A DNA stretch of 64,000 bases from an uncultured delta proteobacterium (GTDB lineage Bacteria > Desulfobacterota > Binatia > Bin18). The position numbers and the translations under genes were made by a program. The stretch spans positions 1-64,000 of the forward strand of contig CAVTCR010000073.1 in assembly GCA_963733195.1 (NCBI GenBank). The letters are read 5' to 3'. The stretch's first letter is position 1, and every line of letters starts with the position of its first letter. The notes under the pieces are model-generated. The model was not told the DNA's origin and did not search any database. It saw only the letters and a program-made list of their open reading frames with translations. Below are positions 47,499 through 64,000 of the stretch, in pieces.

Positions 47499-48116
47499 GT
47501 GGCCATCTACGCCGTGTTTGGCATCGGTGTCGGAAATCTCGGGCGAGGCCGGGCACCCCGTCGCCCAATGCCGAGGTGGGTCGAGATGCTCAACGGACAT
47601 CTACCCGAAGGAAGCCCGACTGCGCGGATCATAGGATTCTTCGGACATACGGGCAACTTTTTGGCTGATTCGCCGTCGACCGAGCTCGAGGCAGTCACTG
47701 CCCGATTCAACAGTCTGCTCGATATCGAATGGGTCGTACGCCCAATCGACGACGTTCGCGCCGCCTTGTCGGCGCTGGCTGACGCTCCTGAACCGGAGGC
47801 CGAGGATGGTATCCGGTGGACGCTTGGTCTCGCGTTTCACGGGCTAAACGGCACCGAGGGCAGCTATATCTCAACAACGCCGCGAGCCATCCTCTGGAAG
47901 ATCTCGCCCTGCACCATAGGTGTGTGGAAGCGCGACAATCTCGGTGCGGACAAGACGCTCGACAAAGACCGGCGAGGTGGTGGCTGGGGGCACATTTCCG
48001 ACGATGTTGAAAAACAACTCGGTGGTCGCTGGACGGCGCGAAGCCGTCGGACAGTTGACGGACTCGTCCGGAGGACGGCGAAGGCTGAAAGGCATGTGGC
48101 CAATAACCCCGTCTAA
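47499..48116 (+). CDS. Integron cassette 1, hypothetical protein
   Basis: The ORF stop lies within the GTCTAAC box of the attC site; GC content rises abruptly. Confidence 0.7.
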   Translation: MAIYAVFGIGVGNLGRGRAPRRPMPRWVEMLNGHLPEGSPTARIIGFFGHTGNFLADSPSTELEAVTARFNSLLDIEWVVRPIDDVRAALSALADAPEPEAEDGIRWTLGLAFHGLNGTEGSYISTTPRAILWKISPCTIGVWKRDNLGADKTLDKDRRGGGWGHISDDVEKQLGGRWTARSRRTVDGLVRRTAKAERHVANNPV

Positions 48117-48182
48117 CCCCGCAGTCGAGCAGACCACTGGTTCGCATTCGCTCGCTGCGGCCGCTCACCGCGAGCGTGAGGC
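48111..48182 (+). mobile_element. attC site (72 bp)
   Basis: GTCTAAC-CCCGCAGTCGAGC...GCTCACCGCGAGC-GTGAGGC imperfect palindrome. Confidence 0.8.
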
Positions 48183-48203
48183 CGCTTAGTAAGGGAGATC
48201 ATC

Positions 48204-48980
48204 ATGAAGGCGAGGCGATCGATCGTGGATCGATTGATCCAGCTTGTGAGGCCCCGGCTGGTGAGCAGCTTCGCGCCGCCTCCCACGCAGATCGCTGCGG
48301 ATCTCTGGTCGCTCGAGCGTCGTCTTCGCATGCCGAGCGGTCCCGGTCTTCCAGCTCGCACAACCGTGATTCGTTTACGCTCCGACACGCTCCTGGTTGT
48401 ATCGCCGCCGCCGGTCGAGGCAGGGGGACTCGAAGGCGTGGAGGCTCTCGGATCCGTCGAGGAGGTTCTTGTTCCCAACAGCTTTCACTACCTGAACGTG
48501 CCTGGGTTTCTCGCGCGGTATCCACAGGCGACTCTTCGGGTGGTGCCAGGGCTCTACGAGCGGGTCCCTGGGTTACCCCGCGGCCAGGAGCTGCCGGAGC
48601 TACCTCCCCTGTCTTGGCGCGGGGAGATCGAGCACCGTGTACTTGGGCCGGTCCGCGGCGTTTCCGAGGTGGCCCTCTTCCATCGCCCGAGCGCGACCCT
48701 GATTCTCACCGATCTGGCGTTTCACATGCTGCAGTTCGAGAATCGTCTTGCGCGAGTAGTCTGGCGGTTGGCAGGCGTGCCGAGGGGGTTTGGTCCAAGC
48801 CGCACCGCTCGGCTCTTGCTCCTGGGTGATCGGGTCGCGGCAGCTGGGTTTCTCGAGCGCGTGCTCACTTGGCCGTTTCAGCGTGTGCTGGTCGCGCACG
48901 GGGAGCCGCTTGAGGCGAACGCGGTCGATGTGTTTCGGCGGGCCTTCGCACCGTATCTCGCCCGGACGGACGCGGCCTAA
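48204..48980 (+). CDS. Integron cassette 2, DUF4336-like (metallo-beta-lactamase fold) protein
   Basis: RTTVIRL, VPNSFH, EVALFHRPSATLILTD and VAHG; the stop lies inside GCCTAAC. Confidence 0.8.
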   Translation: MKARRSIVDRLIQLVRPRLVSSFAPPPTQIAADLWSLERRLRMPSGPGLPARTTVIRLRSDTLLVVSPPPVEAGGLEGVEALGSVEEVLVPNSFHYLNVPGFLARYPQATLRVVPGLYERVPGLPRGQELPELPPLSWRGEIEHRVLGPVRGVSEVALFHRPSATLILTDLAFHMLQFENRLARVVWRLAGVPRGFGPSRTARLLLLGDRVAAAGFLERVLTWPFQRVLVAHGEPLEANAVDVFRRAFAPYLARTDAA

Positions 48981-49017
48981 CCCCAATGGTGAGCCGGCAG
49001 AGCCAAGCGGTTGGGGC
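48975..49017 (+). mobile_element. Degenerate/short attC
   Basis: GCCTAACC...GGTTGGGGC; the R'' box GCCTAAC is complementary, with one mismatch, to the preceding GTGAGGC. Confidence 0.5.
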
Positions 49018-49095
49018 TGACTTGATTTCGGTTGCTGGTCACAGCCTGGGAAGTGCCGGAACTGTTGTAACGTTCTTGTTTTTCCGGAGTTTGGA

Positions 49096-49851
49096 TTGAA
49101 CGAGCGTGTCGAACATCATCGACTCAGCCATCGCCCCTGGCCACTACCTTCGAAGCCGTGGGCGATGGCACAGGTGTGGCACGATTTGCTGTTTGCGCAC
49201 TGGCCCGTTTCTGTTGCTCAACTCCGTCCGTTGATTCCCGCAGGGTTGCAGATTGATACGTATGAAGGGCAAGCATGGATCGGGGTCGTTCCGTTTCGTA
49301 TGAGCGGTATTCGCCCGCGATTACTTCCGGCGGTTCCGTGGTTGTCAGCTTTTCCTGAACTGAATGTGAGGACCTATGTTGTTGCTGACGAGAAGCCTGG
49401 CGTGTGGTTCTTCAGCCTCGACGCCGCCAACGTGGTAGCTGTAGCGATTGCGCGCCGATGGTATCTGCTACCCTATTTTCACGCCCGGATGTCGTGTCGA
49501 GCGGACGGTGATAGCATTATTTACTCCAGCCAGCGCATCCATCGCGCGGCTCCGTCTGCGACCTTCGTCGGACAGTACCACCCAACGAGTGATATCTTTC
49601 ATGCACAAAAGGGATCGCTTGAGTATTGGCTCACTGAACGTTACTGTCTCTACGTGGCAGGCGCCCAGCAACACCTCTATCGTGGCGAAATCGACCATCG
49701 CCCGTGGCCCTTACAATTGGCCACGGCTACGATCAGAGAAAATACGATGACGCTTTCCCTTGGTATTCAGCTACCTGAAGTGCCGCCTTTGCTACACTTC
49801 GCTCGACGGCAAGATGTCGTCGTCTGGCAACTCGCTCCTGTCAATCGGTAA
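49096..49851 (+). CDS. YqjF/DUF2071 family protein
   Basis: WHDLLFAHW, FPELNVRTYV and WLTERYCLY. Confidence 0.92.
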   Translation: MNERVEHHRLSHRPWPLPSKPWAMAQVWHDLLFAHWPVSVAQLRPLIPAGLQIDTYEGQAWIGVVPFRMSGIRPRLLPAVPWLSAFPELNVRTYVVADEKPGVWFFSLDAANVVAVAIARRWYLLPYFHARMSCRADGDSIIYSSQRIHRAAPSATFVGQYHPTSDIFHAQKGSLEYWLTERYCLYVAGAQQHLYRGEIDHRPWPLQLATATIRENTMTLSLGIQLPEVPPLLHFARRQDVVVWQLAPVNR

Positions 49852-51934: not shown

Positions 51935-52834
51935 CTACTGCTTCTCCAGTGCTATCTCTCGTCGTAACAGTTCGGGAACGGTTTCGTCGCTGACCTCCAA
52001 GCCAGTGGCGAACTGGAGTTCGTTCATCGTCTTTTCGGTTTGGACCATACTGGTGACGACTTGGTCGACTTGACCGGAGATGAAATCGGGTTCTTGGCGA
52101 TTAATAGCTAACTCACTTAGAGATTGAATCTTGTTTTCGAGTCGGTCGATTTCTAAACGCACGATTTCCCGATTGTCGCGGGCTTTTTGTAGATTCGCCA
52201 AACGCGCTTTGCTCGTTGCCAAATGATCTTCGAGGGTTTTACGAATTTTCTGTTGCTGTGGGTCCTCGCTGTTGCTTGGGACACCATTAAGTTGCACTTC
52301 TAATCGGGTAATGTCTTTCTGAATCTGGTCGTCGCTTGTGCGCATGAGAAAGCGATCAAGCGCATATTGCGAAAACAGCAAACGCAAATAGATCCATAAC
52401 AAACGATCGAGTCCAGCGAATTGCATCTCTTCCAGTGGATTATCGGTTTGCAGGGTCGGGGTAGCACCAGGCGATTTCACCAGCGTCGGGTCCTTGATCT
52501 CCATCGCGATCTGTCGCAACTCCAGACAACGTCGGCGCAGTGTTTCAAACCGTTGACGCATGTTGTCTGGCAAGGCGTTCATAAGTCGCTGAAGCGTCTG
52601 ATCCGCGCTCACTGCTCCCTGCTCACGAGTGGCCTTGGCTGCTTGTGCATCAACGTAGCGCTGGAACTTCGAGTTGGCACCGAGCAATCCGACATACGTT
52701 AGCTCTCCCGCGAGCACGAGGGGAATGAAAACGTCCGGTGCTCCACTCAGCCAGGCAAAACCCAGCGAGCCAAAGAGCGCGAGCAGGTTCCAGCGATTTT
52801 TGAAAGCTGCTTTAAGATACCGACCGAATCCCAC
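51935..52834 (-). CDS. Two-TM coiled-coil protein of unknown function
   Basis: N-terminal TM hairpin followed by long heptad regions. Confidence 0.75.
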   Translation of the reverse strand: MGFGRYLKAAFKNRWNLLALFGSLGFAWLSGAPDVFIPLVLAGELTYVGLLGANSKFQRYVDAQAAKATREQGAVSADQTLQRLMNALPDNMRQRFETLRRRCLELRQIAMEIKDPTLVKSPGATPTLQTDNPLEEMQFAGLDRLLWIYLRLLFSQYALDRFLMRTSDDQIQKDITRLEVQLNGVPSNSEDPQQQKIRKTLEDHLATSKARLANLQKARDNREIVRLEIDRLENKIQSLSELAINRQEPDFISGQVDQVVTSMVQTEKTMNELQFATGLEVSDETVPELLRREIALEKQ

Positions 52835-52856
52835 AACATACTCCGTATGCGAGCGA

Positions 52857-53777
52857 CTATGTCGCTGCTCGACGACTCTCTTCTAACTGACTGATCAGGT
52901 CACGGAGGTGATATACCGTCTCCTGAAACTTAGGATCACGCTGCATCTCCTTCGATGGTCGATCAGAAGGCTGAATTGTCAGTTCCTGGAGAATCGTTCC
53001 TGGCGAATTGCTCATGACATACGCGCGATCGCCAAGAAAGACTGCTTCCTCAATCGAATGGGTAATAAAGAACACCGTGGCTTGTACATCGTGCCACAAG
53101 GCAAGTAACAAGTCCTGCATGTTCATGCGGGTTTGTGGGTCAAGCGCGCCAAACGGTTCATCCATGAGAATAATCCGCGGTCGTAGAATCAACGTTCGGG
53201 CAATTGCCACACGTTGACGCATGCCACCCGAGAGTTCGTGTGGGTACTTATTGTGATCGGTGTTGACGTTGAGCCCCACCCGTTGAATCCATTCTTTCCC
53301 AAGCTCTTCGCGCTGTTTACGAGGGAGACCTTGGCATTCCAAACCAAAAGTGACGTTTTCAAGGACGGTGCGATGATCGAAGCTGGTATAATCTTGAAAG
53401 ACCATGCCACGATCAGCGCCTGGTCCTATGACCGGCTGTTCCTGAACCAGCACGTCACCAATGGTCGCGGGATGCTGTGGCTCTAGTCCGGCGATGAGAC
53501 GTAGGATAGTGCTCTTGCCGCAGCCGCTGGGTCCGAGAATGCAGATAAATTCACCTTTCTCGTGGAAGTCTTCGACGACGAATGAGACATTCTTGATAGC
53601 TGTGAACGCATTCGGTTGGTCGATATTGTAGATCTTGGTCACGCCACGAAACTCGACGATGGTCGGTCGTGCGATTTCTGCCGGGGTGCGGACATGCTCC
53701 AATACCTGCCCTACACCAACTGGCTGAGCTGGAGGGGATGCGGTTTGAGGAGCCGGTGCAGTTTCGCTCTGACTCAT
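52857..53777 (-). CDS. ABC ATP-binding protein (NitT/TauT-type)
   Basis: GPSGCGKS, LSGGMRQ and DEPFGALD. Confidence 0.95.
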   Translation of the reverse strand: MSQSETAPAPQTASPPAQPVGVGQVLEHVRTPAEIARPTIVEFRGVTKIYNIDQPNAFTAIKNVSFVVEDFHEKGEFICILGPSGCGKSTILRLIAGLEPQHPATIGDVLVQEQPVIGPGADRGMVFQDYTSFDHRTVLENVTFGLECQGLPRKQREELGKEWIQRVGLNVNTDHNKYPHELSGGMRQRVAIARTLILRPRIILMDEPFGALDPQTRMNMQDLLLALWHDVQATVFFITHSIEEAVFLGDRAYVMSNSPGTILQELTIQPSDRPSKEMQRDPKFQETVYHLRDLISQLEESRRAAT

Positions 53778-54731
53778 GACTTTGCTACCGGAGGATTGGT
53801 TGGCTGTGATGTTACCGAAACAGGCGCCGGGTGCCTACGAAAGGCCGCAGTAATGTCTTCCCAGGTATGAAGTACATTCCGAAGCATTCGGTTCAGTACC
53901 CCAGTGCCACCATAGCGATGGGGAAACAATTCCTTTTGTATCCAGAACAACAGCCGGTCGATGAGCAGAGCGACGATCGGAATGATAATGAGTATTAACA
54001 GAATGTGTTCACGTGGACCCCGACGCATCGAGAGATTAATAAGATGTCCCAGGCCTCCCGTGTCGCCAATCGTCACTAACTCGCCCAACATGATGTAACC
54101 GAAAGCGAGGCCGAACAACAAACGGAGCGAGTTGAAAACACTCGGCATGGCTAACGGCACTAACACCTTCAAAACAGTCTGCCAACGACTGGCACCGAGC
54201 GTGTAGGCAGTATCGATGTACTGGTTACTCACGTCCATGATTGCACGCGCTGTGTCAGAAAAGACAAAGGCGACGCAGGCAATAAAAATGAACATCACTT
54301 TCTGAAATTCGCCAATACCGAACAGTGAGAAGGTGAGAGGGATTAATGCCGCAACTGGAATGTTACGCCCGAAGACAGACAAGGGGGCGAAAAAGGCGTT
54401 GATACGCGAGAAGCAGCCGCATAGCACGCCCAGCGGAACACCAATGAGAGCGGCAAGTCCAAATCCCAGTAGTACGCGCCACAGTGTCGCCAGGAGGTTG
54501 CGCGTCAGCGCGCGATCGAACCAGAGAGCTGGAGAATGATGCTAATGTTTCTCCCGGACTGGGCAAGACTGCGTAACTCAAAATTCGTTCTTCCGACTCA
54601 CCTCGGGTGACAAACCACCAAATGCCAATGCACAAAGTGAGGCATATCGCTCCAAACAGCCACGCTTGCCACTGGGGGGCTTCTTTGCGTAGAGCGAACA
54701 AGGAAAAAGAGGAGAGCGGGTCGGTTTTCAT
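53774..54731 (-). CDS. ABC permease (NitT/TauT-type), frameshifted
   Basis: LPSP, IPVAALIPL and DTAYTLGAS. Confidence 0.9.
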
Positions 54732-54844
54732 CGCGTTTCAACGGCTCACGATATAGAGATCCCGTCTGAAATGTTTAGCGGGCTCAGGATTTTTGTAGAG
54801 ACGCCCCGGCGAGGCGTCTCTACCCCATTCATAAACAGGCTGTT

Positions 54845-56625
54845 TTATTGTTTCTCCGCCGAAAAAATCCGCACCTCTACGCGGCGGTTTTTAGCGTGGT
54901 TCTCTGCATCGTTGCGGTCGATAGGCCGGTCCCAGCCCACACCATCAACCGCAAATTGGTTGGGATTTAACTTGAACTTGCGTACCAGCGCTTCTTTGAC
55001 GGCGTTGGCACGATTCATCGACAATTCTTTTACCACCGACGCAGGAACCTGGCCTTTCATTGAACTATCGGTATGGCCTTCGATAATGATCCGTGCCGCC
55101 CCGAATTGTCCGACTAATCGTCCGACTTCTTCCAGCACAAAATCCACCCGAGGGTCGTAGAGTTCTTCGACTTTCTTGCCATCTACTTCTTTGGTGACCT
55201 TCTTCAACAAATCCCAACTATTGGGATAGAAATGAATGATGATCGTGTTGGTCAGAATTTCATCTGATTCCCCACGAATATCACTCACCGTCGCTGGCGC
55301 GAGTTTGATCTGGTACTCATCTTTTTGTGCGGCATACTTCGGCTCTTTGCCCAGTTTATCGATAATTGAGAAATCCATCACCTGATCAAACGGTACAGGC
55401 TGGTGGGTGATCGCTCTAATACGTCGATACAGATAGTACGCCTGATTCCAAATCCTCTCAAAGTTGGTCGGGTTGTTTTGGTTCAGAAAGAACTGATGAT
55501 TCTCTCCCCAGTTGGTATTGTGCGCATCTCCGAGCATACTCAGCGCTTCGGTTGCTGGGATGTTGTACCCCTGCGCCATCAATTCCGCTAACCGCTTCTT
55601 TGCATCCTCGCTCTTCAAATCCTGCATGGCGTCGAAAATGCCGCGCACGAGCCCCTCAATAATGCCAGGATTATCTTTGGCGAAGTCTGCGCGTGCAAAC
55701 CATACATCGGCAATCAGTTTGTTGGCAGTAGAGGTGTTGACCAACATTCGGTTGCCACGAATCTTTTCCAGATTGTAAATATCGGGTGCCCACGAGACCA
55801 CGCCAGCCAGATCTTTCTGCGCGTTAAAGGCAGCCGCAGCCTGGAAAGCATCCTCGGTAAAGACCATCTGTACTTCGGCTGGCTGGACACCGCCCGAGAC
55901 ACAGCATGTTCAACGCGAAGTAATGTGAGGGTGAATTTTGTGCGAGCACTAACTTTTTCCCGCGGAGGTCGGCAACCGTTTTGATGTTTTCACGAACGAC
56001 AATCCCGTCACCGCCGCTAGACCAGTCGATTTGCTGATAAATGCGGGGCATGACACGACTGTCGCGTGGCTTACCAGTTGAATCGACAAAGCCTTCCATG
56101 AACAATGGGACCATATCGAGTGTGGCCCAACCGATGTGGACCTCACCAACGGCGTAGGCGTCTCGCATTGCCACCGGATTATCGATCAGGACGAGTTCGA
56201 CTTTGAAGTCTTTCCCATCGGGTGTTTTCCACACCTTGCCTGACTTAAAGCCGTTGTTGGCGAGAATGATTGGACCCCAACCGGCCCACACATTCAGGGC
56301 GAAGCGTACGGTGTTATCGGCGAGCGGCTTGTACCCGGCAGTCCCTTTTACTTCAGGCAAACGTTCGCTGGGTCGGAAACTATACTCTTTGACGGTGGTG
56401 ACGCTAGCCGAATCTGCAGCCTCTGGGCCTGCATCAGCAGGAGACGAAGGCATAGGAGTGACACCAGGAGTGACGGTTGGGGTTGTCAGTTCCTAGATCG
56501 GCAGGTTGATTTTCTTGCGTTCCTTTCGGCGCCAGTAGGTCACTCCGGTTCATAGCGAAATACACCAAGCCGCCGACGACCAATAAGAGGGCAATATAAA
56601 ACGGTGCTTTTGGTCCCCCACCCAT
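54845..56625 (-). CDS. Membrane-anchored SsuA/THI5-like substrate-binding protein fused to an OmpA domain, two frameshifts
   Basis: N-terminal TM, DWSSGGDGIV, IADVW; C-terminal IEGHTD..LSMNRANAV..NRRVE. Confidence 0.88.
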
Positions 56626-56699
56626 ATGTGTTGTCTCCCGTCAGATATTTGGTTGTGTTTTCGTTATCGTAGGGGCGTATAGCTATACGCCCCTATACG

Positions 56700-57248
56700 T
56701 TATCCATGGAAAGTAGTTTTCGGTCGTGCTTGCTCCATCGCATATAACATCTGCATGATGGCATACGCTGTCAACTCGCACAGCAGTTGTGTGACCTTTG
56801 CGTGCAATGCATCGTCGAGTTGCGGGTCGATCTCTTTCAGTAGTTTGACGACCAGTTTTTCTTGACTTTGTATCTCAGCTTCGTCAACCCGACCATCCGC
56901 CATTGTCGAAATAAACGATTCGAGCTGGCGTGCATGGTCATCAATCAGCGGGGTTTGCGTCAATTCGTCAACCCAGCTTGGGCGGTTAGGCGAGACGGTA
57001 GGTTTCTGGACGGGCTTTCTTGCCGGTACAGCTTTACGGGTGAGAACCTTTGGTTTTACGAGTTTACGTGTGGCGGGTTTCTTGACTGCTTTCTTCATGG
57101 CGACTTTTTTTGCGACAGATTTCTTCACCAGTTTTTTCACGACCTTCTTCTTTGCCGCGAGTTTTTTTGCTGCTGCTTTTTTCTTCGTCGCTGTGGCTTT
57201 TTTCACGGGACGGGGAGATGTTCGCGTTTTTACTTTTTTTGCTGCCAT
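56700..57248 (-). CDS. Protein with Lys/Ala-rich histone H1-like N-terminus and helical C-terminal domain
   Basis: KKAAAKK-type repeats over about 85 aa; C-terminal MADGRVDEAE. Confidence 0.75.
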   Translation of the reverse strand: MAAKKVKTRTSPRPVKKATATKKKAAAKKLAAKKKVVKKLVKKSVAKKVAMKKAVKKPATRKLVKPKVLTRKAVPARKPVQKPTVSPNRPSWVDELTQTPLIDDHARQLESFISTMADGRVDEAEIQSQEKLVVKLLKEIDPQLDDALHAKVTQLLCELTAYAIMQMLYAMEQARPKTTFHG

Positions 57249-57272
57249 GCCCTCTCCTTATCGTGGGACGTT

Positions 57273-59084
57273 TCACTGCTCGTTCAGTAACTGACGGATA
57301 GCGACGAAGCGTTCCTGTATCTGAGTGCGACCACCAGGTTGTGCGACCTTGGCACGGAGGTCAGGTGGAAGGAAATTGAGTTGGGTGCATTCGAGCACCG
57401 CCGCGAGTTCTTGTAATTCTTTCTCTAACCCTTGTGCCGACGGAATGAAATCGCGCACCGCTTCTTCGAGGTCTGCTTTTTGCAATTCGGTGCGCCCAGC
57501 CGCGAGGACGTGTCGTTTCGCACCCAAGACGATACTCTCAATATCTGCACCGCTGAGGTGGCGGTCGGCGCTGACCGCAGGAATGTCCTCTGGTGCGAGT
57601 TTGATTTTATTTTTGCGTGCCATGACTGCAAACATCTCACGGATTTCTGCATCATCATGCGGATAGAACATGGGAATATGCACTTCGGCTCGCCCTTGCC
57701 GCTTGATGTCAATCGGTAAGAGGTCAGGCCGAGAGGTGAGCAGCATCCAGACAATCTTGCCGCGATAACGGGTGTCGCCCATCTGGCTGGCGATCATGGA
57801 GAACACGCGACTCGAGGTGCCAGAATCGCCCTCGCTTTGGCGATTGCCAAGCGCAGCATCAGCTTCATCAATTAGGACAACCACTGGACCAAGAGAACGA
57901 AGGACGGTGAGGACTTGCTCGAGATTGCCTTCGGTTTCACCTACGTATTTCGAGCGGAAGTTGCGCAGTTTGACACAGGGAATACCAATCGACCCAGCGT
58001 AGCATTCTGCCAGGAACGACTTACCTGTACCCACCGGACCGCACAACAAATACCCCATCGGAGCGGCATCCAGTTGTCCGCTGGCAATCAGCGCTGCATC
58101 CTCGCGCAAGCGATCTTTGGCTGCTTGCTGGCCGACCACTAAGTCAAGCGTGTGAAAAGGTTCAATAAATTCCAACAGGTTCTGACATTGACGTTCGATT
58201 AGTGTTTTCTTGAGTTCGCCGAACTGCCGATCATCGACGCGACGGGCCGAATGTTTAGCTTGGGAGAGGAGCACATTCAAATTGACCAAGCTAAGACCGT
58301 TCGCTCGGTCTGCGAGTTGTTCGGGAGTGAAATCGGTCAGTTGGGAAAAGTTCTGCGTACGACCGATCCACCGTGAAAACTGCTCTCGTTCCACCTTTCC
58401 CGGCAGGGGCACTTCGATGGTTGCGACATGTGGATTCTGCACTAGTCGTGAGTTGATCTCTGAAAGCTTCTCGGCGATCAGGCAAAATGCAATGTTTACT
58501 CGTTTGATGTAGGGATTCTGCGCCCAGCCGAGAAAGCGGACTAAATTGGTTCCTGGTCCACGACCTAACAGACTGAGATCTCCAGCAGGAACTAAGTGTG
58601 AAGCATACTCAAACAGGAGACCGACACTTTTCCGCTGCGCGGTGTCTGGCTCTAAGAGGTTACGTTCAAGGAAGCGATCCAATAACAAGAGGACATTTTC
58701 AGGATCGCGCGGCCAGGAGCCAGCCTCACCAAGACGAGTGGTCAGTGTCTGAGCCATCATCTGTTGACGTTTGCTATTCCCTCCAGCAAACGGGCGTAAC
58801 CCGCGTCCGAGGTCATAGTGTACGACCAGATCCCAAGCACCAAACACTTGTGTGGCAAGAAATTCACTCAGCGTAGTGTAGGTATCTTCCTCTTCTGGGG
58901 TCGTTGCCGGACAGCGAACCAGATCATGAATATTGCCGTGCAGAACAAAGACACAGGTTGTGCCAGAAAAATACAGATCCGCGAGCTCACGTGCCCAACT
59001 TGGATACCATGAAGGAAGGGCGGGAACACCGGTCGGTCTCTGAGGCGACAACGGTTCTGGAGTAGTCGTGAAAGCCACACGCAA
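57273..59084 (-). CDS. Classical-clade AAA+ ATPase with a long N-terminal (possibly degenerate AAA) region
   Basis: GPVGTGKS, SKYVGE pore loop, IDEAD and TSRPDLL..KRQGR. Confidence 0.9.
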   Translation of the reverse strand: MRVAFTTTPEPLSPQRPTGVPALPSWYPSWARELADLYFSGTTCVFVLHGNIHDLVRCPATTPEEEDTYTTLSEFLATQVFGAWDLVVHYDLGRGLRPFAGGNSKRQQMMAQTLTTRLGEAGSWPRDPENVLLLLDRFLERNLLEPDTAQRKSVGLLFEYASHLVPAGDLSLLGRGPGTNLVRFLGWAQNPYIKRVNIAFCLIAEKLSEINSRLVQNPHVATIEVPLPGKVEREQFSRWIGRTQNFSQLTDFTPEQLADRANGLSLVNLNVLLSQAKHSARRVDDRQFGELKKTLIERQCQNLLEFIEPFHTLDLVVGQQAAKDRLREDAALIASGQLDAAPMGYLLCGPVGTGKSFLAECYAGSIGIPCVKLRNFRSKYVGETEGNLEQVLTVLRSLGPVVVLIDEADAALGNRQSEGDSGTSSRVFSMIASQMGDTRYRGKIVWMLLTSRPDLLPIDIKRQGRAEVHIPMFYPHDDAEIREMFAVMARKNKIKLAPEDIPAVSADRHLSGADIESIVLGAKRHVLAAGRTELQKADLEEAVRDFIPSAQGLEKELQELAAVLECTQLNFLPPDLRAKVAQPGGRTQIQERFVAIRQLLNEQ

Positions 59085-59087
59085 CCC

Positions 59088-59843
59088 CTATGAACTCTGC
59101 TTGAGCGTTTCGGCCTGTGCTGGTCCGAGTTCTTTCTGGCTTGCCGCTACGCCAGCACTCTCCGGGGTGACCATGCCCATTTGCGTTTCAAATTCACGCA
59201 AGGCTTGCTCGGCTATGTTTCTCTCCACGGCTTCTTCGCGTTTGATATCGGCCACACCTTCGCTGGAGAGATCGGCGGCGACTCGCGACTTGGCACGGTT
59301 AAGGTTGATCTTGTCATGAATGACCTGTTCAATTTGCCCGAAATCGGTTGTCACATCGAAGTTGAACGTATTTGCCAACTCCGCCATCTCAGCTTCGGCA
59401 CGACTCATCTTCAACTCAGCATCATACTTGGTGATCTTGTCGCGGATGTCAGCGAGTTTTTTCCCGGCGTGTTTAATCTTGGCGAGATTATTATTATAGG
59501 CCTCCTCATGCAGCGTGAGATTATTTTCATTTTCTGCCAGTTGGTTTTTGGCTTTTTGCAAATCGAGAGCATGTTTGGCTGCTGTCTCACGATCCCCGGC
59601 CTGCAGATAGGCTTTGATCCGTGCTTCGAGTGAAGACACTTGAGTTTTATCGTTGGCGACTCGGCGCATAACTTGTTCGACTAACGCCCGGTATTGTGCC
59701 AACCCTTCACGCCCACCTTTGAGTTCTTCGACCGCCTGATCATACTCATACTGCATCTGTGCGATCGGGTCTGAGGCCCAAAAAAAGTTGGCGAGTTTAT
59801 TGAGTTGAGCTTGGAGCGTGACCCACAATTTTTCGAAGATCAT
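59088..59843 (-). CDS. PspA/IM30 (ESCRT-III superfamily)-like protein
   Basis: MIFEKLW amphipathic start, DPIAQMQ, long coiled coil, AG.RETAA motif. Confidence 0.7.
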   Translation of the reverse strand: MIFEKLWVTLQAQLNKLANFFWASDPIAQMQYEYDQAVEELKGGREGLAQYRALVEQVMRRVANDKTQVSSLEARIKAYLQAGDRETAAKHALDLQKAKNQLAENENNLTLHEEAYNNNLAKIKHAGKKLADIRDKITKYDAELKMSRAEAEMAELANTFNFDVTTDFGQIEQVIHDKINLNRAKSRVAADLSSEGVADIKREEAVERNIAEQALREFETQMGMVTPESAGVAASQKELGPAQAETLKQSS

Positions 59844-60190: not shown

Positions 60191-61669
60191 ATGAAACAAC
60201 TATCTGTCGTCGCAAAATATACCTTTGCAGGGGTACTGTTCGGTTGTTGTTTGCCGCTTGGGGCGACGATACTGGACCTATCAGTCCAAGGCCGATCCTT
60301 TACCCTTATCGACATTATTGCGGTGCAACGTTTACAGCCGTTCCACTGGGTTATTGATACAACACCGTTTTTTCTTGGACTTCTCGCTGCCCTGGTCGGG
60401 AAACGTGCACAAGCAGCTCAATACTATCAGCCCTTCTTTTCGCTGTCGCTCGATGTGCTGTGTATCGCTGGGTTTGACGGTACCTTTAAGCAAGTGAACC
60501 CCGCTGTGGAAAAGATCCTGGGGTACACCGCGGGCGAAATGATTGATCATCCGTTTCTCGAGTTTGCTCATCCAGACGACCATATAGCAACCATTGAGGT
60601 GACGAAAAACCTTGCGAATGGAAACGATGAGATTGACTTTGAGAATCGCTACCGTTGCAAGGACGGTTCCTACCGGTGGCTCTCATGGCGAGCGAGGTCC
60701 GTGCTGGACCAACAACAGATCTACGCAATTGGTGTGGATGTGACTGATCAGAAACGGATGGAAGAAAAGCTTCATAAACAAATCGCGGAGATTAACAGCG
60801 GAGTTCAAACGTTAGCTTCTTCGGTGAATCAAATCGTCGGTTCAATGGCACAACTGCTGGCTGCGACCTCAGAGACAGCGACGACCGTTGCTCAAACGGC
60901 GACGACGATCGAGGAAGTCAAACAAACGGCGTCTGTGTCGAGCCAGAAGGCACAGGAGATATCTGCCAGTGCCCAGCAGGCAGTGCAGGTTGCTCAGGCC
61001 GGCGAGCAGGTGGTGGAACTGGCACGCTCTGGGCTTGCCCGCGCCCGAGATCAGATTCGTTCGATTGCTGACAGTGTGTTGCAACTCGGCACACAAACCC
61101 AAGCGATCAGTGAGATTATTGCCTCGGTGAACGAACTCGCTGAGCAGTCAAACTTACTGGCCGTCAATGCGGCCATCGAAGCTGCGAACGCCGGTGAACA
61201 CGGCAAGGGATTTGCCATCGTCGCCCGTGAGGTGAAACGGTTAGCCGAACAATCAAAACAGGCGACCTCGCAGGTACGGTTGCTGCTGAGTGAGATTAAA
61301 AAGGCGAGCACAGCTGCAGTATTGGTTACCGAGCAGGGAGCAAAAGCCGTCGAGGCAGGAGTACAGCAATCCCTGGAAGCAGGCGAATCGATTCGCACAC
61401 TCAGTCAGGGTATTGCCGAAGCCTCGTATTCTGTCACCCAGATTGCCGTTTCCAGCCAAGAACAACTAGTAGGTATCGATCAAGTGTCGACCGCAATCTC
61501 CAGCATTCGCATCGCCAGTCAGCAGAATACTGTCGGCATCAGGCAAGTCGAAGAAGCTGTGCGAAACCTACAACAAGTAGGGCGGTCGTTGCAGTTATTA
61601 GCCGAGCAGTCAACGCTGGCATCGACCACGAGACTGGGCGGAGTAAGCCTTTCTTCGACTCAGGTGTAG
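60191..61669 (+). CDS. Methyl-accepting chemotaxis protein with PAS domain
   Basis: Two TMs, PAS (HPDD..CKDGSYRW) and LAEQSNLLAVNAAIEAA..GKGFAIVA. Confidence 0.93.
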   Translation: MKQLSVVAKYTFAGVLFGCCLPLGATILDLSVQGRSFTLIDIIAVQRLQPFHWVIDTTPFFLGLLAALVGKRAQAAQYYQPFFSLSLDVLCIAGFDGTFKQVNPAVEKILGYTAGEMIDHPFLEFAHPDDHIATIEVTKNLANGNDEIDFENRYRCKDGSYRWLSWRARSVLDQQQIYAIGVDVTDQKRMEEKLHKQIAEINSGVQTLASSVNQIVGSMAQLLAATSETATTVAQTATTIEEVKQTASVSSQKAQEISASAQQAVQVAQAGEQVVELARSGLARARDQIRSIADSVLQLGTQTQAISEIIASVNELAEQSNLLAVNAAIEAANAGEHGKGFAIVAREVKRLAEQSKQATSQVRLLLSEIKKASTAAVLVTEQGAKAVEAGVQQSLEAGESIRTLSQGIAEASYSVTQIAVSSQEQLVGIDQVSTAISSIRIASQQNTVGIRQVEEAVRNLQQVGRSLQLLAEQSTLASTTRLGGVSLSSTQV

Positions 61670-61774: not shown

Positions 61775-64000
61775 TCAGGCCCATGTCTCAAGATCCGACC
61801 GGAAAACGCGTACCCGCTGGAGAATTCCCTCGCGCTGGGTGTTGAACCACGTCATCGCACCAGCAAGGAGCGCGGCAAGTGTCAACAGGATCACTGCCTG
61901 GCTCAAGCGTTGTTCAGGGAACAGCATGATGAGTTGCCAGCCGATGTTCCACACGAGACTGGCGACTCCAGTATAGAGAAACGCGCGAACACGGATAGCA
62001 ATCCCAAGGAAGACACCAGCCAGGCTGAGAGCCAGCGCAACGATAAACACTCCCAATCCTTGGTGAAGGAAGACATCTGAGGTTGCACTGACATACAGTG
62101 TGGTTGTTGCTGCTAAGCGAATGGTATTCAACACCTGAGGCTTAAGTTCATGGCGGTGGAGATGTGCGAGGAGGAGGACACTCAGAGCAATTGGAGTCAC
62201 ATATAGTTGGACAATGTGGTACTGCTCCGCCCACATGGGAATCCATAAATATACTGCCGCATTGAAAGCCGCGAGCGCTAGATAGAGAGGTAGTGACCGC
62301 TCGGTTTCACGGTACGTGAGAAGGTACAGTGCACTCGCGGCAATGAAAGCAGTACCAGCATGAGTAGATGCAAGGTGAAATGGAATCGTTGCGAAGAGGA
62401 GGAACGGTATCACCATCACGACATGGAAAAGTGGCTCAAGTCGCACGAAATGATAAAGTGCGAACAAAGCGTAGGTAGCAATCATCAGTGCCGTTGTATC
62501 CCATGCTGATGCGGGAGCGAGACCGACGAGAATGAGGCGAATATAGAAACCCACTGCTCCGGCAAATAGTGCAGTGCCATAGGTCCACTGTGACGTTTGT
62601 GAGTGCCACGCTTGTCGTGCCCCCAAAGCAAGTAGCAACCCTGCTGCACCAAAGGCAGCGATCTTATCTGAGCCTTCACTGAGCCACTGTGGGGTGCTAC
62701 CGGCAGCAAGCGCAGTGAAGAGAGAGAATGCATGCAAGAGCCATTCAATAACAGCTAAACCAGCGGCGATCTGCCATGCCCACGACAGTAGTGGTGTGAG
62801 TATGCCCGATGAAGGGGGTAGGGTGTCTAGCGAATCTTCTGTCGGTTCCGCGTGGTTCTTTTGTAGTTTCCAGTCTGCCCACATAAAGAAACAGGCGATG
62901 ACGGCGAGTTGTAGCGAATACCACGGCCATAAGAGATGGATCTGCGCGAACGGTATCCACAGGAGGGGCCAATCGTGGAGCACCACCAAGATCATAGCAC
63001 CGGAGGCAAGTAGCCAACGCCGTTGCTGTCGCTGCCACCCGAGAACGGCCGCGGTGTCGATCAACACGAGTAGTGCAAGGAGTTGCTCATTGAACGGGGT
63101 CGGAAGCAGCACCAATGCAGTTATCGCAGCAACAAGACTGGGCTCGACCCATTGCGTCAGTATACTTCCGTAGAGGCTCAGTTCGTTCGCCTCCCCATTG
63201 GCGTTTCTCCCAGAGAAAATGCGAAGCACACACGGTGGCGCTCCATAAAGCGACAAAGAACGGGAAGTGGAAGACTGCGGAAACATACCCGAGCCAGGCA
63301 ACGAGGGCCGTGCAACTAAGTGCGACGAACAAGGCGTGACCTTCCCACGCCTGTTTATGTCGCCACCACAGGTGCAGGAACGAAAACGCCAACGTTCCGG
63401 TGAAAACAAGCAACTCAAGCCACTGTACGTCACTTGCAGGAAACAAACTGTCTACATTGTTGCTACAAAGGAGAAATACGAAGTGGCAGAGCCGTACAAG
63501 AAAAAACCCTGCGGGAAGGAGCAAGAACGGATGTGGGAGGTTATGCCTTTGCCAACTTAAGCGTGCAGTCAGTGCCTCTCCGTACAGGTGCCACCAGGGA
63601 ACGACGAGCAGCAGCAAGTTGAGCCAGACCAACTCACTGATGGGAGGACTAATTGGAAGCAGAAGTAGAGGCGAACTCGTCGCAAAGAGGGGTGGATCAG
63701 CCCACCATGCGGAGGTGAGAGTGGTGCCAACCCTGGTCAGAAGAAATACTGCAATCCATGAGAATCCGCTCCAATTGCTGTTGCGCAGCATCAGAAATAA
63801 ATACGCCGCGCTAGCGATGAGATAACCGGCATGTTGGAGAAGAGCGATGCGAGACAGGTGAAGCGTATCAAGAGACGAGAGCAAAAGGCAAAAACTGACA
63901 GTGAACAACCCAAACCACGGCCAGGTATCGGGCGCAATTGTCCACTGTGATTGCCGTGCATTCCACAGCGGCAGCGCGAAGTTTGCTGCTGCCCAGAGTG
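61775..64000 (-). CDS. Large polytopic membrane protein (partial, frameshifted)
   Basis: Continuous hydrophobic reading frames running to the window edge. Confidence 0.75.

Follow-up and report, generated by a model that had tools for sequence, protein, structure and literature searches.

How bacterial ESCRT-III relatives such as PspA and Vipp1 are taken apart is an open question. It is raised by a row of genes in a 64,000-nucleotide stretch of DNA from an uncultured delta proteobacterium of the Binatia (GenBank assembly GCA_963733195.1, contig CAVTCR010000073.1, positions 1 to 64,000; the whole stretch is called the window here), in which a gene for a PspA-like protein lies next to a gene for a tandem AAA+ ATPase. 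The other genes of the row encode a lysine-rich small protein, a substrate-binding protein fused to an OmpA-like domain (SBP-OmpA), the permease and the ATPase of an ABC transporter, and a membrane-anchored helical protein, termed TMcc. The analysis favors an ATP-driven PspA system (probability, roughly 0.6) in which the tandem AAA+ ATPase would turn over a PspA polymer, while TMcc and the wall-tethered binding protein would position the system or sense. A PspA together with a dedicated unfoldase-type AAA+ ATPase would offer a concrete, purifiable two-protein case for ATP-driven PspA disassembly, and the wall-tethered binding protein, TMcc, and the small protein are leads to how such a machine is positioned. 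Two points temper this value: the operon type has already been predicted in print, and the window's copy has interrupted genes.

A PspA-like protein beside a tandem AAA+ ATPase

Analysis of the open reading frame (ORF) list and of the domain scans revealed seven co-oriented coding regions on the minus strand, which together span window positions 51935-59843:

59088-59843, minus strand: PspA-like protein, 251 amino acids (aa), PF04012
57273-59084, minus strand: tandem AAA+ ATPase, 603 aa, TTG start, PF00004
56700-57248, minus strand: lysine-rich small protein, 182 aa, no assigned family
54845-56625, minus strand: SBP-OmpA binding protein, in three frames (56497-56625, 55824-56453, and 54845-55867)
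53774-54731, minus strand: ABC permease, in two frames (54363-54731 and 53774-54427), BPD_transp_1
52857-53777, minus strand: ABC ATPase, 306 aa, intact, ABC_tran
51935-52834, minus strand: TMcc, membrane-anchored helical protein, 299 aa, no Pfam or NCBIfam family

Only 3 bp separate the stop codon of the PspA-like gene from the start of the AAA+ gene, the permease and ABC ATPase genes overlap by 4 bp, and the remaining intergenic gaps measure 22-113 bp. These coordinates bear out the tight packing, the co-orientation, and the 3-bp gap that had been described in the original prediction. Its "seven-gene operon" stands in that seven co-oriented genes are real; it does not stand as an intact operon at this locus, where three frameshifts leave five of the seven genes whole.

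The ORF at 59088-59843 matched PF04012 over residues 1-196 (E value, 4.4e-14; 53.1 bits; cut-off, 33.9), and a profile of 52 orthologues matched solved Vipp1 chains over positions 1-220 (8qfv_0, E 2.3e-10; 7o3w_D, 6.8e-10; 6zvr_B, 3e-9). On these matches, the product is assigned as a true member of the PspA/Vipp1 family within the ESCRT-III superfamily, in agreement with the PspA/ESCRT-III-like fold that had been proposed for the first ORF. Its C-terminal tail carries the motif ALREFE.QMGLVTPE...KELGP, which is conserved in the alignment, divergent members included. Five genomes were checked for further PspA homologues. The PspA-like protein of the cluster was the sole PF04012 match in three planctomycete genomes (G432, G433, and G434), and two matches each were found in the window's genome and in a Binatia-labeled genome. 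The second match in the window's genome is a canonical PspA of 227 aa (PF04012, E 2e-47), encoded on the same contig about 8.5 kb past the window end (G000 C73:68292-68975; L103:4292-4975, minus strand); its named relatives are labeled Deltaproteobacteria, Candidatus Binatia, and Desulforhabdus. The window's genome carries a native PspA beside the planctomycete-type PspA-like protein.

The AAA+ ATPase consists of a degenerate module without a P-loop (D1, about residues 23-308), a module with the full motif set (D2, about residues 340-545), and a conserved helical C-terminal extension (residues 546-603). The Walker A position of D1 reads F.LHGN.hD in 76 of 76 aligned family members. Across the 76 sequences, D2 shows the motifs GPVGTGK[ST] (GPVGTGKS), VLIDEAD (IDEAD), the pore loop KYVGETE, and TSRPDLLPIDLKRQGRAE, as well as a conserved arginine-containing segment, TSRPDLLPIDIKRQGRAE. 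These elements are read as Walker A, Walker B, the aromatic pore loop 1, and the second homology region with its arginines. D2 accounts for the PF00004 match (residues 345-471; 82.1 bits), and its nearest solved relatives by sequence are Afg2 (E 3e-33) and Cdc48 (E 4.4e-33), along with VAT and p97 (about 1e-33). The AlphaFold2 (AF2) model is confident at residues 22-300. Whole-chain searches with Foldseek returned p97/VCP, Rix7, Drg1, and MSMEG_0858 as top matches (about 600 columns; E about 1e-13). In the VIA comparison, residues 23-308 matched Vps4 (4d80_A; Z score, 13.5; root mean square deviation [rmsd], 4.0; 223 residues aligned), p97 D1, and spastin. Judged by its sequence, D2 is predicted to be an active classical AAA-clade unfoldase-type module and D1 a dead module. 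The description in print, a protein with two AAA+ domains of which the N-terminal copy is inactive (Ravi et al., mSystems 2024, PMC11237479), is borne out by this anatomy.

The original prediction had compared the ATPase with Vps4. A classical unfoldase-type AAA+ protein tied to PspA is what was found; a Vps4-like architecture is not. A Pfam scan detected no MIT domain in the protein, and the CdvC model NF041006 scored 37.2 bits against a cut-off of 650. Identification as a Vps4/CdvC orthologue was rejected on the tandem AAA+ arrangement, the lack of MIT, the low CdvC score, and the closer similarity of D2 to Afg2/Cdc48/p97. The CDC48 model TIGR01243 reached 63.1 bits (cut-off, 802.65), and the approximately 22 residues ahead of D1 leave no room for the N-terminal double-psi-barrel domain of Cdc48/p97/VAT.

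Retention of the gene set in Planctomycetota and probable transfer into the window's family

One genome per species was scanned with an alignment of 16 AAA+ homologues, which yielded 270 confirmed stretches. Counts for close loci refer to the best 80 of these 270 stretches, searched by tblastn with the window proteins over flanks of up to 10 kb. A PspA-like gene was positioned upstream of the AAA+ gene, on the same strand and within 1.5 kb, at 65 of the 70 close loci with room, and the small gene lay downstream at 69 of 73 with room. The full downstream set in the order of the window (small gene, both SBP halves, permease, ATPase, and TMcc) was present at 35 of the 47 close loci that have 9 kb or more on the downstream side. 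Clustering of this kind far exceeds what chance would give. The gene-neighborhood survey that had been proposed as a check found that the set co-occurs elsewhere. The PspA-like/AAA+ pair is 65-75% identical across planctomycete orders.

Divergent planctomycete loci were studied in addition. Of 401 genomes sampled in the phylum to which a Gemmataceae genome belongs, 42 matched residues 1-340 of the ATPase at E ≤ 1e-30 (29-65% identity); the assumption of a near-universal cluster in Planctomycetota was rejected on this count. Twelve loci from the 41 other matching genomes, with D1 identities of 31-49%, formed the divergent set. The PspA-like gene was found at 10 of the 12, the TMcc gene at 9, the SBP-OmpA gene at 8, the permease and ABC ATPase genes at 6, and the small gene at 3. 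The order is changed at half of these loci: the genes are arranged as PspA-like, SBP-OmpA, permease, ABC ATPase, TMcc, and AAA+ in L108, L110, and L112 and in yet another way in L104, L105, and L111. Two further loci (L113 and L115) hold the PspA-like, SBP-OmpA (with NMT1 and OmpA domains kept), TMcc, and AAA+ genes, with no permease or ATPase gene within the 19.9 kb fetched. These results speak for a functional link, because the gene set recurs in a different order in divergent planctomycete loci; this retention through rearrangement is the strongest evidence for such a link in the present analysis.

In the window's own phylum, 12 of 401 genomes matched the D1 query, including the window's own genome, and the other 11 did so at 24-32% identity. 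Nine distant loci of this phylum (D1, 24-32% identical) were compared. Three of them (D1, about 25-27% identical) contain, in this order, a PspA-like gene directly upstream, the AAA+ gene, and TsaD, and so show the pair in an independent, distant lineage; the PF04012 matches of these PspA-like proteins are below threshold (E 2e-7 to 4e-6). Close orthologues (78-94% identity) were detected in 6 of 24 genomes of the same family; the 16 genomes from other families of its class or order had none. In a quick maximum-likelihood tree of 76 ATPases with a midpoint root, the window's sequence and four relatives form a clade with a support of 100 in the Shimodaira-Hasegawa-like approximate likelihood ratio test (SH-aLRT). 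This clade is nested within a clade of 57 rows (SH-aLRT, 98), the other 52 of which are all from Planctomycetota; further planctomycete rows lie outside it. The nesting of the window's copy among planctomycete sequences and its patchy occurrence within its own lineage make horizontal transfer likely. By this tree, a subclade of the window's family probably received the cluster from Planctomycetota. The window lies in a contig of 255 kb, and the assembly comprises 6.9 Mb in 87 contigs (93% complete; 4.5% contamination).

The surroundings of the cluster are less conserved. A chemoreceptor gene with PAS and MCP signaling domains (60191-61669, plus strand) diverges from the presumed promoter region of the cluster. 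An epimerase-family gene and a HAD hydrolase gene lie downstream, outside the conserved set. The HAD hydrolase and chemoreceptor genes are syntenic in the nearest relatives only (the chemoreceptor gene only in L003 and L006). Scans for promoters and terminators gave numbers at the level of shuffled sequence (7 versus 6.5 expected and 14 versus 10.5 expected). The G+C content is 0.62-0.65 at window positions 47500-49500 and about 0.52 in the rest of the profiled region.

Envelope components, small protein, and frame breaks

From its N to its C terminus, the binding protein comprises a membrane anchor, a linker rich in Pro, a substrate-binding domain of the TauA/SsuA-like (NMT1) type, and an OmpA-like domain. 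Its intact relatives are encoded by single ORFs of 581-594 aa, start with M.GQPKAPFYI... and a hydrophobic anchor, and match both NMT1 and OmpA in Pfam. When an intact relative was compared with the PDB, TauA (6ssy, E 2.7e-11) and Omp38 (3td3, E 3.4e-13) were found. In the window, the OmpA-like domain PF00691 at the C terminus scored 45.3 bits (cut-off, 27.2), so the fusion of a binding protein to an OmpA-like domain, as first described for this locus, is confirmed. The permease matched PF00528 (BPD_transp_1; 65.5 bits), with the NCBIfam matches SaoP, NtrB, and TauC all below their cut-offs, and the ABC ATPase matched PF00005 (ABC_tran; 95.2 bits), with a TauB-like model as the best NCBIfam match (212.9 bits; cut-off, 357). 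The part set of a NitT/TauT-type ABC importer (NMT1/TauA-like domain, PF00528, and PF00005) is thus present at 52857-56625, in frames that are interrupted in the window by three single-base breaks. The substrate class was not indicated by NCBIfam, in which every specific equivalog remained below its cut-off. The binding protein may sense rather than import. This receives some support from the transporter-less loci, because L113 and L115 keep the SBP-OmpA gene without the permease and ABC ATPase genes.

TMcc has a basic N-terminal helix, a hydrophobic hairpin at about residues 14-53 (hydrophobic segment, 35-53), and a cytoplasmic helical bundle. Its AF2 model is all helical, with a mean predicted local distance difference test score (pLDDT) of 84.9. 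The family comprises 1,410 representative clusters at E ≤ 1e-3. Similarity to PspA was not detected by profile comparison: the hhalign probability of TMcc against the PspA-like protein was 0.1% (A2 versus A3) and 1.2% (A7 versus A6), Snf7/PspA appeared among the families at E ≤ 1 in 0 of 40 TMcc members, and the PDB profile search returned none. Foldseek listed a single weak Vipp1 row (rank 39; E 0.78) and the VIA lists none, all-helical folds being hard to place. Fold searches gave generic helical and BAR-like matches only, with Z scores of ≤9.2. The segment at about residues 128-280 resembled BAR types (PSTPIP1 F-BAR, Z 8.6, rmsd 4.9, 148 residues aligned; Rgd1p, 8.5; arfaptin, 8.1), at Z scores below the approximately 13 up to which matches are common for long helical bundles. 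Identification of TMcc as PspM (Rv2743c) was rejected: a genome-wide search with PF25587 at E ≤ 10 gave two weak matches elsewhere and none at TMcc, and the Atlas feature score of TMcc and PspM was 0.87, below the tool's trust level.

The N-terminal extension of the small protein (about residues 1-85) is rich in lysine and alanine and is variable; the conserved core of 96 residues (window positions 56700-57005) has the motifs W.D, ADG.vD..E, LLCEL, and C-terminal RPKT.FRG. Its orthologues measure 96-190 aa and keep the C-terminal core; many have only 96-110 aa and lack the basic region. The product had been described as a histone-like protein, and the histone H1-like Hc2 family was considered. 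The PF07382 match (20.7 bits; cut-off, 40) and the NF038052 match (20.2 bits; cut-off, 135) are below threshold, and the former lies in the variable lysine-rich extension, which many orthologues lack; the description was abandoned. What is conserved, a domain of 96 residues, belongs to no known family: each Pfam family matched at E ≤ 1 was shared by at most 9 of 33 members, and the nearest Atlas clusters are unnamed and mostly from Planctomycetota. Fused forms of the domain (eight matches) are too few and too doubtful to count. Two proteins from single contigs (P0391 and P0397) join the ATPase C terminus to the small domain in one frame. A third candidate, P0393 (993 aa, from a 2-Mb contig), was rejected as a gene-calling artifact of a GC-rich genome that joins the PspA-like protein, an out-of-frame arginine-rich reading of the ATPase gene, and the small domain. 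The small protein is regarded as a subfamily-specific accessory, possibly an adaptor of the ATPase.

One further element was located between the small gene and the binding protein gene:

56670-56695, no strand assigned: perfect 26-nucleotide palindrome with an 11-bp stem, just past the stop codon of the small gene

Its RNA fold has a free energy of -21 kcal/mol (z score of -3.54 versus shuffles), and no T-run follows the palindrome. It is part of a 37-nucleotide insertion relative to L006 and occurs as a single copy in the genome. Between the same two genes, 18 related loci (L010-L065) carry an eighth gene of about 265 aa (e.g., L015:12228-13010), and all eight of the eight products scanned contain vWA domains and a lipoprotein-like leader; the window has no such gene.

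Comparison with single-frame intact relatives revealed that the SBP-OmpA gene of the window is divided into three frames, with breaks near 56490 and 55901, and the permease gene into two, with a break near 54527. The anchor piece of the binding protein (56497-56625; MGGGPKAPFYIALLL...) reads into a stop codon, with the frame shifting near 56490. Each break amounts to a single extra base when L003, L005, and L006 serve as the reference (L005 and L006 for the permease break near 54527). In contigs of close strains from other metagenomes, the base at 54527/54529 is missing (one contig of run X1 and one of run X20), as is the base at 55902 (one contig of run X1). At most 0.21 of the sampled words were contained in any sequencing run, and these contigs come from close strains and not from the source sample. 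A genome-wide search revealed no second copy of the binding protein in the window's genome. Two observations were made outside the cluster: a gene for a large multi-pass membrane protein (ORFs 61775-63433 and 63087-63908, minus strand) has one base more than the same-genus locus L101 near 63165, which splits it into two frames, and the homologue of the PAS chemoreceptor in the same-genus genome G402 (L102:12073-13564) appears as three consecutive ORFs. Frame breaks therefore seem common in these assemblies. The three breaks in the cluster may reflect gene decay or assembly error. At most the genes for the PspA-like protein, the AAA+ ATPase, the small protein, the ABC ATPase, and TMcc are intact in the window.

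Proposed function and comparison with known systems

Beside the observed family and fold assignments, linkage, distribution, and frame breaks, we infer binding, threading, and signaling in the following form. The PspA-like protein would bind to and polymerize on the cytoplasmic face of the inner membrane. The tandem AAA+ ATPase would act as a dedicated unfoldase that engages PspA-like subunits, probably via the C-terminal ...KELGP tail, and extracts them; such extraction would drive turnover or disassembly of the polymer, by analogy with the action of Vps4 on ESCRT-III. TMcc may be the membrane receptor or organizer. The membrane-anchored, peptidoglycan-binding TauA-like protein, with or without the permease and ABC ATPase, may link the system to a solute of the periplasm or to the condition of the wall-membrane interface, and the 96-residue small protein may serve as the accessory, possibly the adaptor, of the ATPase. 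A more far-reaching proposal is tentative and on balance doubtful: the tandem AAA+ ATPase would be the bacterial functional counterpart of Vps4 that threads the KELGP tail, the wall-tethered SBP would be a periplasmic sensor or positional anchor and not a nutrient importer, and in planctomycetes that carry the cluster and have its PspA as their sole one, the machine would shape or repair the unusual invaginations of the cytoplasmic membrane.

Several observations weigh against the ATP-driven PspA system. At 6 of the 12 close loci that depart from the full downstream set (L009, L024, L026, L035, L039, and L060), nothing is held downstream beyond the small gene, and L039 also has no upstream PspA-like match. 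The ATPase gene stands alone in L043, PspA-AAA-small-TMcc occurs without the transporter in L034, and neither the ATPase nor TMcc was detected in L048 and L068. The remaining exceptions are L022, where the small gene was undetected, and L076, with TMcc and a weak SBP match only. The ABC genes are entirely missing from eight of the 47 close loci with room (L009, L024, L026, L034, L035, L039, L043, and L060). TMcc was not found genome-wide in four of five genomes with the short form (PspA-AAA-small), whose completeness is not established. The transporter and TMcc thus appear dispensable, because several loci keep PspA-AAA-small without them. The AAA+ gene is alone at 1 of the 12 divergent planctomycete loci. 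Among the nine distant loci of the window's phylum, a peroxiredoxin (AhpC/Redoxin) gene replaces PspA upstream of the AAA+ gene in five (L091-L094 and L098; family code f17), and a Ser/Thr kinase gene lies beside the AAA+ gene in one. The ATPase family is hence not strictly tied to PspA, because a peroxiredoxin, a kinase, or no partner adjoins it at some loci. The ATPase has no MIT-like domain. Because the AF2 model is poor at residues 301-473 (pLDDT of <50), D2 is assigned from its sequence matches. The first three genes of the window's cluster are parted from the rest by a 74-bp spacer that contains a strong hairpin. Finally, with three frameshifts, the full system may not work in the source organism.

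Some of these observations would be expected if two unrelated modules lay side by side, that is, a PspA/AAA+ stress module and an ordinary importer of the taurine/sulfonate/nitrate class with an incidental OmpA fusion. The hairpin-bearing spacer between the small gene and the binding protein gene, the absence of the ABC genes from several loci that keep PspA-AAA-small, and the resemblance of the transporter parts to TauABC, SsuABC, and NrtABC all fit this explanation. Nevertheless, it is judged unlikely: the SBP gene stays with the PspA-like, TMcc, and AAA+ genes through reordering and directly follows the PspA-like gene in divergent loci, TMcc follows the transporter ATPase gene in close loci, and two loci keep SBP-OmpA with neither permease nor ATPase in the 19.9 kb fetched. 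To our knowledge, a membrane-anchored SBP with an OmpA domain is also not the usual design of an importer. Alternatively, the AAA+ ATPase might be an unfoldase for membrane protein or general quality control in the manner of Cdc48 or Msp1, with a substrate other than PspA, and the PspA-like protein might only shield the membrane while extraction takes place. The similarity of D2 to Afg2, Cdc48, and p97 is compatible with such a role, as are the peroxiredoxin or kinase neighbors of distant family members; the TMcc and AAA+ genes abut or overlap in L105, L112, and L113, which fits TMcc as a partner or substrate. Such a role is improbable given that the PspA-like gene is the most constant neighbor (at 65 of the 70 close loci that offer room and 10 of the 12 divergent ones), that conservation of the PspA-like tail motif parallels the ATPase family, and that no protease gene was found among the cluster genes scanned.

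A role in phage defense or abortive infection, for an island organized around a "phage shock" protein, was also considered, in view of the patchy distribution, the signs of horizontal transfer, and weak PADLOC matches of the AAA+ ATPase to IetA and of the OmpA domain to ZorB. These matches cover generic AAA and OmpA/MotB domains only, and no nuclease or other effector was seen at the cluster. The 65-75% identity across planctomycete orders, the status as sole PspA homologue in the three planctomycete genomes checked, and window neighbors of other kinds than defense genes (chemoreceptor, HAD hydrolase, and epimerase) likewise make a defense island highly improbable.

The composition of the cluster had been thought to match no characterized system. 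As a claim of novelty this is not supported, since the cluster type has already been described computationally. In their passages on the operon, Ravi et al. (2024, PMC11237479) report PspA with a two-AAA+-domain protein whose N-terminal copy is inactive, and longer operons that encode an ABC ATPase as well as a permease and a PBPB-OmpA protein; ATP-dependent membrane remodeling linked to solute transport is proposed, and the membrane protein is called a Snf7 homologue with a TM segment. The gene types are the same as in the window; a PspA/Snf7 similarity of TMcc was not detected here. The string "Planctomyc" is absent from the main text of that article, and its passages on the operon are silent on the small protein of 96 residues, on the variant with a vWA lipoprotein, and on the variants without a transporter. 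The present analysis adds the D1/D2 anatomy, the conserved motif of the PspA-like tail, the small protein, the vWA variants, the forms with shuffled genes or without a transporter, a TMcc not confirmed as Snf7-like, the patchy distribution with probable transfer, and the frame breaks. The full-text searches made here listed no experimental study on a PspA-dedicated unfoldase or on PspA linked to planctomycete membranes. According to a passage of a 2025 review (PMC7619361), a Vps4-like ATPase appears absent in bacteria, and in the passage concerned, a 2024 structural paper (PMC11746142) invokes "chaperones or PspF" for PspA turnover.

Like the ESCRT-III/Vps4 and CdvB/CdvC systems, the window cluster combines a polymer-former of the ESCRT-III superfamily with a classical-clade AAA+ ATPase that has an aromatic pore loop, and by analogy the shared logic would be subunit extraction by threading. 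Unlike Vps4, which has an MIT domain and a single cassette, the window ATPase has no MIT domain or known MIT-interacting motif (MIM) and is a tandem protein with a dead D1; ESCRT-I/II-like and CdvA-like genes are also missing from the cluster. A similar PspA/ATPase pairing is found in the archaeal "Halo_adaptin" and "Meth_adaptin" loci, which are described in the relevant passages of Makarova et al. (mBio 2024, PMC10936438): a PspA-like gene precedes, on the upstream side, the gene for a Vps4-like ATPase that has features of the Cdc48 type, and a ProX-type substrate-binding protein belongs to one of the locus types. Compared by these descriptions, the archaeal partners are wH and adaptin-like proteins, with no OmpA domain.

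The classical Psp/Lia systems (Escherichia coli PspFABC, Bacillus subtilis LiaIH, and Mycobacterium tuberculosis PspA-PspM) share with the window a PspA effector and a small membrane partner in an operon, and by this analogy TMcc could play the role of PspB/C, LiaI, or PspM. The cluster differs from them in lacking a PspF-type enhancer-binding ATPase, PspB/C, LiaF, and ClgR, and its ATPase is of the unfoldase type and not a transcription factor. Relative to Cdc48/p97/VAT, the window ATPase lacks the N-terminal double-psi-barrel domain, and its D1 has no Walker A motif. The two stacked AAA+ modules are nevertheless common to the window ATPase and the type II unfoldases Cdc48/p97/VAT and Afg2/Drg1, which give its best sequence and fold matches.

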